Made by a program: the position numbers and the translations under genes
Notes under the pieces: generated by a model
Seen by the model: the letters and a program-made list of their open reading frames with translations, nothing else
Database searches by the model: none
Told to the model about the DNA's origin: nothing
DNA from: a virus
Lineage: Duplodnaviria; Heunggongvirae; Uroviricota; Caudoviricetes
Length of the DNA: 30,682 bases
Direction: 5' to 3' (one strand)
Virus record (IMG/VR): IMGVR_UViG_2526164662_000036
Shown here: positions 13,373 through 17,310 of the stretch, piece by piece
Numbering within the stretch: position 1 is the stretch's first letter
How the letters are laid out: each line of letters starts with the position of its first letter

Positions 13373-14770
13373 TACCGATATGCTCCACTTAACCGACCAC
13401 CATCACGGGCCTGCTGTTGCATAAAGTCCGCTGCCGCTTTTTTCCCAAGGTCATAAACCACCTTCAGGGCAGCCGGACCTATCTGCCCGTTCGTGCCATC
13501 GTTATTGATCTCGATGTTGTACTGCGGGGCAAACATCGCCATACCTGAACCACCAATATCCGCCACAACCCCCAGCTTACCGTCAGCACCACGACGCAGT
13601 GGCAGAATGGCTTCAGGTCCAGCTTCCCCCATCACACCCGCGCCTTTTGCAAAAGCAAAAAACGTCGGACGGTTAACCACCGTGCCACTGTAACGACTCA
13701 AATCAGCAGACTGATAAATCCCCCCATTGGCATTCAGGGAAAGGCTGCTGAGATCAAATCCCAGTACACTGCCAATCCCTTTTATCGATTTCATCATGGT
13801 TGCCTGCGCCAGGATTTTCGCCATATCTGACAGCACCGAAGAGGTGAAGGATTTGAAGTTGAGTTTGCCGGTAGTGACAAAAGTTGCCAGGCCATTTCCC
13901 ATGTTGCTGAAGGCTGATGAGAACACCTGTTCTGCTGTTCCTGCCGTATTGTCTGCATCCACGGTAAAATCCTGAAATGCACGCAGGACTCCGTTTTTCC
14001 AGTTACCCTGCACAACTTCAAGCTGTTGCCAGTAACGGCGATTCTCATTCAGTTGTCGGTTCAGGCTCTCCGTCAGCGCCTGCTCGGCCTTTCTGTAGTC
14101 ATCCGTGTTATATGTCCCTTTCTGCTCACTATCCCGCCTCAACTGCTCCAGCTGTTGCTGGTATTTCTGGCGAAGACTCAGTTGTACCTGATATCGCTGC
14201 CGCTGCTGATCACCCATACCCACCGTGGCGATATCCAGGTCATGTTGCTGACGCTGAGCGCGCTCTTCTTCAGCCAGTTGACTGGTCAGCTGAATTGTTT
14301 TTTTCTTCAGATCGTTGAGTGCCGTTTGTTTCTGAAGCTCCTGCTGTTTTACATCCAGCAGCGTCAGTGCCTGCATCAGTTCATCTTTACGGGCCAGCAC
14401 ACTCTTTTCATCTGCCGTCAGTTTTTTCCCGTCCAGATCGCTGATGCGCTGCTGCAGAGCCAGAAGCTGTTTATGCGCTTCTGTCATCTTTTCAGTGGCA
14501 ATGCCTGCTGACTGTCTTGCAGCAGCAATCTGTCCTTCCACCTGTGCCTGTTGCTGACTGTACTGCAGCAATAACCGGGTGGCCTCATCATTACGGGTTT
14601 CGCGTGTTTTTTTCTTACCGGATGCCAGGGCTTTCTCGTAACGTTCATTTTCACGTTGTATCGCCGCATCCCTGACAGCCTGGTCGGCGTACTGCATGGC
14701 ATTAATACGCGCAATTTCACGCTGATGTCGTGCTGCTTCCGTTTCATTCATCCGGTTCAGTGCAGCATTT
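13372..14770 (-). pseudogene. H: tape measure protein H, 3' (C-terminal) fragment separated from its 5' part by the IS66 insertion
   Basis: C-terminus ...INNDGTNGQIGPAALKVVYDLGKKAAADFMQQQARDGGRLSGAYR matches the lambda gpH C-terminus; the apparent TTG start at 14781 lies inside the IS inverted repeat. Confidence 0.9.
14763..14770. repeat. target-site duplication CAGCATTT (left copy)
   Basis: Identical 8 bp directly abut both ends of the IS (14763-14770 and 17303-17310). Confidence 0.85.
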
Positions 14771-14800
14771 GTAAGCGTCAACGGAGCACCGTATTGACGC

Positions 14801-16414
14801 TTATTTATTGGTGAGTACTACGTTCCATGGCAGGAGTTCATCAACTCGGTTGGAAGGCCATTCCGGCAGTACGCTCAGGATATGGCGCAGATACGCTTCC
14901 GGATCGATACCGTTCAGACGGCAGGTGCCGATCAGCCCGTACAACAGTGCTCCACGCTCGCCGCCGTGATCGCTGCCAAAGAACATAAAGTTTTTCTTTC
15001 CGAGACAGACTGCACGAAGCGCTCTTTCCGCAGCATTATTATCCGCCTCCGCCAGACCGTCATCACTGTAATAACAGAGGGCATCCCACTGATTCAGTAC
15101 ATAGCTGAACGCTTCGCCCAGTCTGGATTTTTTCGACAGCGTACCATTCTTCTCCACCATCCATTCATGCAGCGACGTCAGTAACACTTTGCTTCGCTGC
15201 TGCCTGACGGCAAGACGCTCTGACTCCGGTAATCCCCGTATTTCATCCTCGATGGCGTACAGTTCACTGATTCGCTTCAGGGCTTCTTCTGCCGTCGCAC
15301 TTTTGCTGCTGATGTATACATCGTGGATTTTTCGCCGGGCATGGGCCCAGCACGCAACTTCTGTCAGTGCACCACCTTCACGTTCTGCACTGAACAACCT
15401 GTCGTAACCTGTGAACGCATCCGCCTGCAGGATACCCCGGAAGGGGCGGAGGTGTTGCTCCGGGTGTTTCCCCTGCCGGTTCGGCGAGTACGCGAACCAG
15501 ACCGCTGGAGGAGATGACGAACCCACATTGCGATCATCCCGGACATACGTCCAGATACGCCCTGTTTTCGCCTTTTTCTGACCCGGTGCCAGTACCTTTA
15601 CCGGTGTGTCATCAGTGTGAACCTTGCGGGTGTTCATTACATAACGGTACAGGGCATCATTCACCGGTGTCATTAACTGGCAGCACGCGTCAACCCAGTT
15701 GGAGAGTAAGGCCCGGCTCAGTTCGACACCCTGGCGGGCAAAGATTTCACTCTGACGATACAGTGGCAGATGTTCGCAGTATTTTCCCGTTAACACGCGG
15801 GCAAGTAATCCGGGGCCCGCGATACCACGCTCTATCGGGCGGGACGGCGCCGGTGCTTCAACAATACAGTCACATTTTGTACAGGCTTTTTTTACCCGTT
15901 CTGTGCGGATCACTTTCAGGGCACTGCTCACCAGTTCCAGCTGTTCAGCGCTGACTTCCCCCAGATAATCCAGCTCACCGCCACACTCCGGGCAACAGCT
16001 TTCTTCTGGCTCCAGGCGGTGTATTTCACGGGGAAGGTGTGCCGGTAACGGACGACGATGGCGCGACTGTCGCAACTGGCGGGGAACCTGAGGATCGTCT
16101 TCCCGCCCACTGTAACGATCGCTGTCCTGTTCACGTTGTTTCAGCAGAGCCTCAGCCAGTTCAACTTCACGACGCAGTTTTTCAGAACGGGTACCGAACA
16201 GCATCCGGCGCAGTTTTTCTATCTGAGCCCGCAGATGTTCTATTTCCCGTTCATCTTCTTCGATCTTTTCTTCGGCACGTGTCAGTGCAGAGCGCAGGAA
16301 GGCTTCCGTCTCTTCAACCAGACTCAGTTGCTGGTCTTTCTGACGGAGGGCTTCAGCCTGCTCAGAGAGCAACCTTTCCAGCTCTGCGATGCGAATGAGG
16401 TATTTCTGACTCAT
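14801..16414 (-). CDS. tnpC: IS66-family transposase (orf3/TnpC)
   Basis: 537 aa; N-terminal coiled-coil/leucine-zipper region, zinc-finger-like CPECG...CTKCDC, and the conserved IS66 transposase core. Confidence 0.9.
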   Translation of the reverse strand: MSQKYLIRIAELERLLSEQAEALRQKDQQLSLVEETEAFLRSALTRAEEKIEEDEREIEHLRAQIEKLRRMLFGTRSEKLRREVELAEALLKQREQDSDRYSGREDDPQVPRQLRQSRHRRPLPAHLPREIHRLEPEESCCPECGGELDYLGEVSAEQLELVSSALKVIRTERVKKACTKCDCIVEAPAPSRPIERGIAGPGLLARVLTGKYCEHLPLYRQSEIFARQGVELSRALLSNWVDACCQLMTPVNDALYRYVMNTRKVHTDDTPVKVLAPGQKKAKTGRIWTYVRDDRNVGSSSPPAVWFAYSPNRQGKHPEQHLRPFRGILQADAFTGYDRLFSAEREGGALTEVACWAHARRKIHDVYISSKSATAEEALKRISELYAIEDEIRGLPESERLAVRQQRSKVLLTSLHEWMVEKNGTLSKKSRLGEAFSYVLNQWDALCYYSDDGLAEADNNAAERALRAVCLGKKNFMFFGSDHGGERGALLYGLIGTCRLNGIDPEAYLRHILSVLPEWPSNRVDELLPWNVVLTNK

Positions 16415-16444
16415 GACCGTTTTTATAATGCGGTCAGGAGTTTT

Positions 16445-16795
16445 TTACAACATTGTCAGTGAGTTACGGCTGGATGTTTTTGGCTGACGCCAGTCCAGCT
16501 TATCGAGGAGCATTGCCAGTTGCGAGCGGGTAATGGATACCTTGCCGTCACGTACCGCAGGCCAGATAAACTGGCCTTCCTCCAGGCGTTTGGTGAACAG
16601 GCACAGACCATCAGCATCAGCCCAAAGAATTTTGACGGTGTCACCCCGTCGGCCACGGAAGATAAACAGGTGACCGGAGAAGGGATTATCATTCAGCACA
16701 TGTTGTACCTGTTCTCCCAGTCCGTTGAAGGATTTACGCATATCGGTAACGCCGGCAACGAGCCAGATACGGGTACCTGATGGGAGTGAGATCAT
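16445..16795 (-). CDS. tnpB: IS66-family accessory protein orf2/TnpB
   Basis: 116 aa, MISLPSGTRIWLVAGVTDMRKSFNGL... typical IS66 Orf2; 4-nt ATGA overlap with orf1. Confidence 0.85.
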   Translation of the reverse strand: MISLPSGTRIWLVAGVTDMRKSFNGLGEQVQHVLNDNPFSGHLFIFRGRRGDTVKILWADADGLCLFTKRLEEGQFIWPAVRDGKVSITRSQLAMLLDKLDWRQPKTSSRNSLTML

Positions 16796-17217
16796 CTTCC
16801 CCTCCCGGTCAGTTCACGGATCAACACTGTGAGCAGCTCTGGCGATGGATTTTCCAGCGTCATGTTACCGTGACGGAATTCCACCTTGCAGGAACTGGCA
16901 CTGACTCTGGTCTGAGTGGAAGTGGATAAAGACGGCGCAATGGCCGCCACAGGTTCTTTCTGCTCATCCGGCGTTATTTCTACAGGTAATAATTCAACGC
17001 CAGTGTCAGAAGAGGTCGTTACCGGAAGACGCCGCGAAACACGCCCTTCGTTCTGCCAGAGCCTGAGCCATTTGAAAATAACATTATCATTGACGCCATT
17101 TTCACGTGCAATCTGTGCAACACAAGCTCCAGGTTGTGATGCCAGTTCCACCATACGAAGTTTGAATTCATTCGAATAGTTTTTACGAGGTTCTTTTCGC
17201 CAGTCCTGTAATTCCAT
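16792..17217 (-). CDS. tnpA: IS66-family accessory protein orf1/TnpA (helix-turn-helix)
   Basis: 141 aa, helix-turn-helix region (ACVAQIARENGVNDNVIFKW); first ORF of the IS66 operon. Confidence 0.85.
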   Translation of the reverse strand: MELQDWRKEPRKNYSNEFKLRMVELASQPGACVAQIARENGVNDNVIFKWLRLWQNEGRVSRRLPVTTSSDTGVELLPVEITPDEQKEPVAAIAPSLSTSTQTRVSASSCKVEFRHGNMTLENPSPELLTVLIRELTGRGR

Positions 17218-17302
17218 ACTTAGATGTCCGTCTATATCAGATGGGCGTCTAAGTTACCAATTCTCGTCTGATGGCTACATACGGCGGTCAGTTTACGCTT
17301 AC

Positions 17303-17310
17303 CAGCATTT
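17303..17310. repeat. target-site duplication CAGCATTT (right copy)
   Basis: Identical to 14763-14770. Confidence 0.85.

Follow-up and report, generated by a model that had tools for sequence, protein, structure and literature searches.

We analysed a 30,682-nucleotide stretch of DNA from IMG/VR virus record IMGVR_UViG_2526164662_000036 (the window, to which all coordinates and strands refer) that carries part of a lambdoid prophage of the Qin type, integrated at ydfJ in Escherichia coli. The data strongly suggest that ISEc23, an insertion sequence (IS) of the IS66 family, has inserted itself by transposition into H, the tape-measure gene of this prophage, and that this event is a simple knockout of H that would leave the prophage unable to build tails. 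In total, the argument builds on (i) an exact 8-bp target duplication at the ends of the inserted element, (ii) the recovery of an uninterrupted H reading frame when the element and one copy of the duplication are removed, (iii) the full-length identity of the element to copies of ISEc23 elsewhere, and (iv) the presence of the empty site in closely related prophages.

Insertion point and reconstruction of H

The inserted element spans positions 14771-17302 (2,532 bp) and is bordered by a direct repeat of CAGCATTT, the left copy of which lies at 14763-14770 and the right copy at 17303-17310. The two 8-mers are exact and the repeat stops at 8 bp on both sides; the chance expectation for one given pair of 8-mers is 4^-8, i.e. 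~1.5e-5. On the coding strand the target reads AAATGCTG and occurs once, at nucleotides 1668-1675 of H, in the rebuilt H as well as in the uninterrupted genes of E. coli FHI_NMBU_03 and of phage Ayreon, which is a deposited complete phage genome with E. coli K12 as the host. A preliminary description of this DNA had regarded the perfect 8-bp repeat as a true target duplicate, with the proviso that the 8-mer should not lie elsewhere in homologues; instead of lying elsewhere, it is present as a single copy at the same position in both uninterrupted homologues.

The insertion point lies after codon 558 of H, so that codons 1-558 plus one nucleotide remain on the 5' side. The 5' fragment (17303-18977, minus strand, with the ATG at 18977) matches the Pfam domain TMP_2 (PF06791, E 5e-50). 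From this fragment the H reading frame enters the element and reaches a stop codon at 17232-17234, which gives a product of 581 amino acids made up of 558 H residues and 23 IS-encoded residues with the sequence GKRKLTAVCSHQTRIGNLDAHLI. The 3' fragment (13372-14770, minus strand) encodes residues 559-1021 and is severed from the start codon; it carries the TMP_4 and Tape_meas_lam_C domains. These C-terminal 463 residues contain two of the three recognised domains and, except for fortuitous in-frame codons, have no start of their own. The earlier proposal that the insertion preserves the reading frame had to be abandoned: the element together with the duplicated 8-mer adds 2,540 bp, which is 2 mod 3 rather than a multiple of three, and H stops after 23 codons of the IS.

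Deletion of positions 14771-17310, i.e. of the IS and one copy of the repeat, yields one open frame from 18977 to 13372 of 3,066 nt and 1,021 amino acids, in which the junction reads RRNAENA followed directly by ALNRMNETEAARHQ. The frame is restored because this removal recreates the original sequence. A joined gene of about 1,021 codons had been anticipated in the preliminary description, and we find it as a single open frame that contains no internal stops and no frameshifts. The flank alignment to uninterrupted tape-measure genes gave the same picture: relative to the FHI_NMBU_03 gene, the rebuilt H has no insertions or deletions and differs at 6 nucleotides and 2 amino acids, and relative to the Ayreon tape measure it likewise has no insertions or deletions and differs at 45 nucleotides and 12 amino acids. 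The 3' fragment shares 100% identity over 1,399 nt with the tape-measure gene of FHI_NMBU_03 and 99% identity with phages mEp460, Ayreon and Tritos; for mEp460-type phages in general, the nucleotide identity of this half of H is 98-99%.

The rebuilt protein matches the tape-measure set of Pfam domains (PF06791, PF24622 and PF09718), and gene-by-gene comparison with the FHI_NMBU_03 prophage and with Ayreon places H between the G/T chaperone genes and the genes M-L-K-I-J. The rebuilt gene codes for a lambda-type (gpH-like) tape measure, to which a role in tail length and tail assembly would be assigned by analogy with lambda genetics.

Identity of the inserted element

The element is a complete IS66-family insertion sequence with its genes on the minus strand. 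Its terminal inverted repeats are 24 nt long, imperfect (83% complementary), begin with GTAAGCG and coincide exactly with the ends of the element, with the tnpC-proximal repeat at 14771-14794 (GTAAGCGTCAACGGAGCACCGTAT) pairing with the tnpA-proximal repeat at 17279-17302 (...CAGTTTACGCTTAC); written as two arms, the repeats are GTAAGCGTCAACGGAGCACCGTAT and ATACGGCGGTCAGTTTACGCTTAC. Three genes lie between the repeats: (i) tnpA (16792-17217, minus strand) encodes a helix-turn-helix accessory protein of 141 amino acids with a match to HTH_Tnp_1 (PF01527, E 5e-12), (ii) tnpB (16445-16795, minus strand) encodes an IS66 Orf2-type accessory protein of 116 amino acids with a match to TnpB_IS66 (PF05717, E 1.1e-36), and (iii) tnpC (14801-16414, minus strand) encodes a DDE transposase of 537 amino acids with matches to LZ_Tnp_IS66, zf-IS66, DDE_Tnp_IS66 and DDE_Tnp_IS66_C. 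The match of TnpC to DDE_Tnp_IS66 (PF03050) covers positions 1-283 of the 284 profile positions (E 9e-98, 327 bits), and the additional matches are to PF13007, PF13005 and PF13817. The stop codon of tnpA and the start codon of tnpB overlap in ATGA at 16792-16795, the arrangement that characterizes translational coupling of tnpA and tnpB.

Thus, the element has the features by which the IS66 family is recognised, i.e. a TnpC transposase, upstream tnpA and tnpB genes, terminal repeats of ~20-30 bp with GTAAGCG and an 8-bp duplication. The 8-bp target duplication has been documented for IS66 (PMC6778807) and termini of the type GTAAGCG... have been documented for members of the IS66 family (PMC12888890). 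The earlier identification of a 2,532-bp IS66-family element with three open reading frames and GTAAGCG-type repeats is borne out by the set of Pfam matches, by the inverted repeats and by the existence of copies that are 100% identical to it.

These copies are identical to the element over positions 1-2532 and are carried by numerous chromosomes and plasmids of E. coli. In RefSeq, the genes in the identical copies are named 'IS66-like element ISEc23 family transposase' (WP_000080195), TnpA (WP_000422741) and TnpB (WP_000624722). Based on the full-length nucleotide identity to the copies labelled in this way, we assign the element to ISEc23. The element is absent from the otherwise colinear FHI_NMBU_03 prophage. 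Among 5,426 complete E. coli genomes, 4,795 contain sequence related to the element and 2,489 contain it with at least 80% coverage at one place. ISEc23 has been described previously: it expanded in the E. coli ST131 and O104:H4 lineages (PMC7373316) and is also present on resistance plasmids (PMC4398462).

We retrieved six identical copies of ISEc23, which represent five independent sites, and their ends are exactly alike in all cases. The duplications that flank these other copies are ATTAAACC and GAAAGTCC (8 bp each), TGATATTGA (9 bp) and GCTGAAG(G) (7 or 8 bp), and one retrieved copy lacks a target duplication, as would result from recombination between copies. A target consensus is not apparent among the five independent sites, which constitute a small sample. 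The length of the duplication made by ISEc23 seems to be slightly variable (7-9 bp) or, alternatively, the end base is ambiguous (copies L007, L008 and L010). Given its intact open reading frames and the identical copies at many sites, the copy of ISEc23 in H is probably still active.

Two potential structures were observed at the ends of the element. A perfect 10-nt inverted repeat (TAAGCGTCAA / TTGACGCTTA) within 14772-14803 overlaps both the terminal repeat and the stop codon of tnpC, and a 16-nt imperfect hairpin at 17218-17254 lies directly upstream of the tnpA start codon. A scan of positions 13300-19100 for promoters and terminators gave counts that did not exceed those in shuffled sequence, and we claim no outward promoter or polarity signal for this region.

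Empty and occupied sites in other genomes

To describe the empty site, we used as a query a reconstruction of 1,200 nt from which the IS and one copy of the repeat had been removed. This reconstruction is 100% identical to sequences in nine complete E. coli genomes, in each of which the gene is annotated as 'phage tail tape measure protein'. The window and the FHI_NMBU_03 prophage are colinear with 99.4-99.5% identity, and the sole break in this colinearity is the IS; the alignments of the two flanks overlap by exactly 8 bp in FHI_NMBU_03. The same overlap of 8 bp was observed in eight further complete genomes in which the flanks were searched separately, including OkiPb01717, which matches the right flank at 100.0% identity over 11,675 nt. 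The empty site with one copy of CAGCATTT is thus present in at least nine complete genomes.

The occupied site was found only in draft assemblies of one strain lineage, namely those of E. coli DEC10F (RDEC-1) and one other assembly, and the window derives from DEC10F or a strain nearly identical to it. In the 5,426 complete E. coli genomes, no record covers the left junction (window 14471-15070), and the exact 36-nt junction pattern has no matches in a set containing one genome per GTDB species. The 581-amino acid truncated H is present as an exact protein in three contigs of two NCBI assemblies. In the GenBank entries of E. coli DEC10F, EHX01388.1 is the truncated H product and EHX01384.1 is the 3' fragment of H, and positions 7232-28977 of the window (21,746 nt) are 100% identical to AIGU01000004.1. 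The second assembly (NMKO01000081.1) contains the H-IS junction and runs 127 nt into the IS before it ends. Finally, a partial protein of 'E. coli RDEC-1 (10f)' has residue 558 as its exact end, which is what a contig broken at the IS would produce.

The prophage surrounding H

The window covers the late half of the Qin-type prophage, with positions 1-14770 and 17303-30682 being colinear with the FHI_NMBU_03 locus. The Qin type is recognised by the truncated ydfJ, ynfT, ydfK, pinQ, tfaQ and the cold-shock/gnsB set. The first part of the gene order comprises the truncated ydfJ (1-1284), ynfT, ydfK, pinQ, tfaQ, the tail-fibre gene and lom; the tail part follows with J, I, K, L, M, the IS-split H, T, G, V, U and Z; and the head part consists of two head-tail genes, a ClpP-capsid fusion, the portal gene, a small W-like gene, the large terminase gene and DUF1441, after which comes the gnsB/ynfN region.

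When the 27 other coding sequences were compared one by one with the reference, 25 were full-length and without internal stops. The ynfN gene matches up to the end of the window, where it is cut, and gnsB, which is non-structural, is the only frameshifted gene among those compared. Every visible head and tail gene besides H is open, in line with the earlier impression that the remaining head and tail module is intact. The gnsB homologue (30120-30292, minus strand) carries a 1-nt deletion that changes T8 to T7 on the plus strand relative to FHI_NMBU_03 and frameshifts this 57-codon gene; the change may reflect a true pseudogene or a homopolymer error in the draft assembly. The tail-fibre gene (3872-6832, minus strand) is open here with 2,961 nt, and the FHI_NMBU_03 counterpart is annotated as frameshifted with 2,960 nt.

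Both the window (at 30682) and AIGU01000004.1 (397,701 bp) end within a few bases of each other, in the repeat region of cold-shock genes and gnsB. About half of the prophage is therefore located on another contig, beyond the reach of the window, and this half includes the regions for lysis, Q, replication, immunity and integrase; FHI_NMBU_03 has these lysis-to-integration regions, and some of the genes in them are pseudogenes.

Several additional features were observed in the window. T (18949-19278) reads in frame -1 with respect to G (19287-19673), and the heptamer before the G stop codon (19293-19299, minus strand) is G GAA AAG compared to G GGA AAG in lambda, which makes it a candidate programmed G-T frameshift site with an imperfect slippery sequence. 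The only match of the window to an Rfam family is to IS009 (RF02111) at 3331-3529 (minus strand), inside the tail-fibre assembly gene tfaQ, with 219 bits and a gathering score of 117. An open reading frame of 447 amino acids at 11639-12982 (plus strand) is antisense to K and L, is of low complexity and rich in Pro, Ala, Ser and Arg, and is very probably spurious. A search for a pinQ-associated invertible segment in 1200-7000 detected only two weak inverted repeats, neither of which is convincing.

Discussion

Combining the structure of the junctions with the comparison to uninterrupted homologues, we suggest that ISEc23 inactivated H by an ordinary transposition. Staggered cleavage of the target followed by gap repair would have duplicated the 8-bp sequence AAATGCTG within H. 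As a consequence, H ends after residue 558 and 23 IS-encoded residues, and the C-terminal part with TMP_4 and the lambda-type C-terminal domain is separated from the start codon. In this scheme, H is predicted to be a null allele. Lambda mutants in H fail to assemble tails, and the length of the lambda tail is set by the tape measure. Because lambda-type tails need a full-length tape measure, the prophage would not produce tails without help; it would form at most tail-less heads and, lacking tails, would thus give rise to no infectious particles by itself despite the intactness of the other visible head and tail genes. The insertion may, moreover, exert some polarity on the downstream genes M-L-K-I-J. 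The flanks are nearly identical to relatives with an empty site and the remaining structural genes are intact, which suggests that the insertion is recent.

No observation contradicts the insertion itself. Several considerations weigh against other parts of this scenario. The name ISEc23 is taken from RefSeq product labels rather than from an ISfinder entry. Sequence related to H is present in 1,858 of the 5,426 complete genomes, and a homologous H of a co-resident lambdoid prophage could complement the defect or repair it by recombination. Finally, the prophage may be defective for other reasons that reside in the early, lysis and integration regions outside the window; the insertion in H, put forward in the preliminary description as possibly the single cause of the tail defect, may therefore be one lesion among several.

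In its strongest form, the last of these considerations becomes a different explanation, in which lesions in unseen regions had already killed the prophage and ISEc23 landed in neutral DNA, so that the insertion is a symptom of decay and not its cause. The window and the contig stop at the gnsB/ynfN region and place about half of the prophage beyond inspection, gnsB has lost one nucleotide, the FHI_NMBU_03 reference prophage has pseudogenes for the tail fibre, a methyltransferase and ydfB, and Qin of E. coli K-12 is a classic defective prophage. However, the visible head and tail genes other than H are all open and 99-100% identical to those of relatives, including relatives with an intact H, and the visible 28 kb shows no sign of accumulating decay. 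Moreover, the change in gnsB sits in a homopolymer and is possibly an error of the draft assembly. We therefore consider prior death of the prophage to be possible but doubtful, and favor the model in which the insertion of ISEc23 into H is itself what would disable tail assembly.

Alternatively, ISEc23 could act as a reversible block of H, in which rare precise excision between the 8-bp repeats, or recombination with a homologous H carried by a co-resident prophage, brings back the tape measure. In that case the RDEC-1 prophage, which is apparently tail-defective, could occasionally release infectious phage. The suggestion in the preliminary description that precise excision would restore H is correct at the level of the sequence, but nothing in our data suggests that such excision occurs; repair or complementation through a homologous H in a further resident prophage is no less plausible than precise excision. 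Overall, we regard a reversible block as improbable.

Even less probable is that the insertion represents a selected or regulated state, either as an on/off switch that operates by precise excision of the IS or as a means of retaining the 581-amino acid fragment of H for a new function. It is compatible with a switch that removal of the IS and one copy of the repeat gives a perfect H and that the IS, itself intact, has identical copies that are widespread. However, polymorphism between IS-free and IS-occupied alleles, use of the site as a hot spot and recurrence of the insertion were not seen, the junction being present in one strain lineage only, and the IS has no outward promoter signal above chance. 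Moreover, precise excision of IS elements is rare and is mediated by the host rather than catalysed by the transposase. That the H-IS junction is an artefact in which a repeated IS was misplaced in H has a negligible probability and was rejected because, although the source is a draft, IS copies often cause misjoins and the junction is missing from the complete genomes and GTDB species representatives, a misjoin would not yield an exact 8-bp duplication of a sequence that is single in the intact gene, and independent data contain the same junction (the second assembly) or break at residue 558 (the third data set).

For annotation, the knockout of H by ISEc23 means that EHX01388.1 and EHX01384.1 of DEC10F are the halves of one gene split by ISEc23 and that the Qin-type prophage of this rabbit enteropathogenic E. 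coli strain probably cannot assemble tails by itself. The junction could also be used as a strain-specific marker for this lineage in the polymerase chain reaction. The element and the phenomenon are already known, and the locus is already public in the form of two annotated gene fragments; a literature search on the interruption of tape-measure genes by IS elements in E. coli prophages found no relevant papers. We regard the insertion as a textbook-clean IS knockout with a verifiable empty site, i.e. as routine damage to a prophage that has little import beyond annotation and raises no new biological question.

The case is paralleled by the IS-disrupted lambdoid prophages of pathogenic E. coli, such as O157:H7 Sakai, in which an IS within a morphogenesis gene inactivates the prophage and the remaining genes are intact; the defective prophage pool of the Sakai strain is reportedly the subject of Asadulghani et al. 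2009 (PLoS Pathog). The two cases differ in the strain, the prophage and the IS, which in O157 is mostly IS629, and in that the present case is known from sequence alone. With regard to the target gene, lambda gpH and the tape measures of mEp460, Ayreon and Tritos share with the rebuilt protein the TMP_2, TMP_4 and Tape_meas_lam_C domains and the position of the gene. Unlike in lambda and the lambdoid phages, H is split by an IS here, and the rebuilt protein has 1,021 amino acids compared to 853 amino acids in lambda gpH.

With regard to the element, IS66 and IS679 have in common with it the gene order tnpA-tnpB-tnpC, a DDE transposase with zinc-finger and leucine-zipper domains, GTAAGCG termini and the 8-bp duplication; the element is a separate member of the family, compared with them here by these features. 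Compared to the ISEc23 copies in ST131, in O104:H4 and on plasmids, the copy in H differs only in its insertion site, the H site being occupied in 0 of the 5,426 complete genomes, and it has in common with them all 2,532 bp, the three genes, the ends and the formation of target duplications, which are 7-9 bp long elsewhere.

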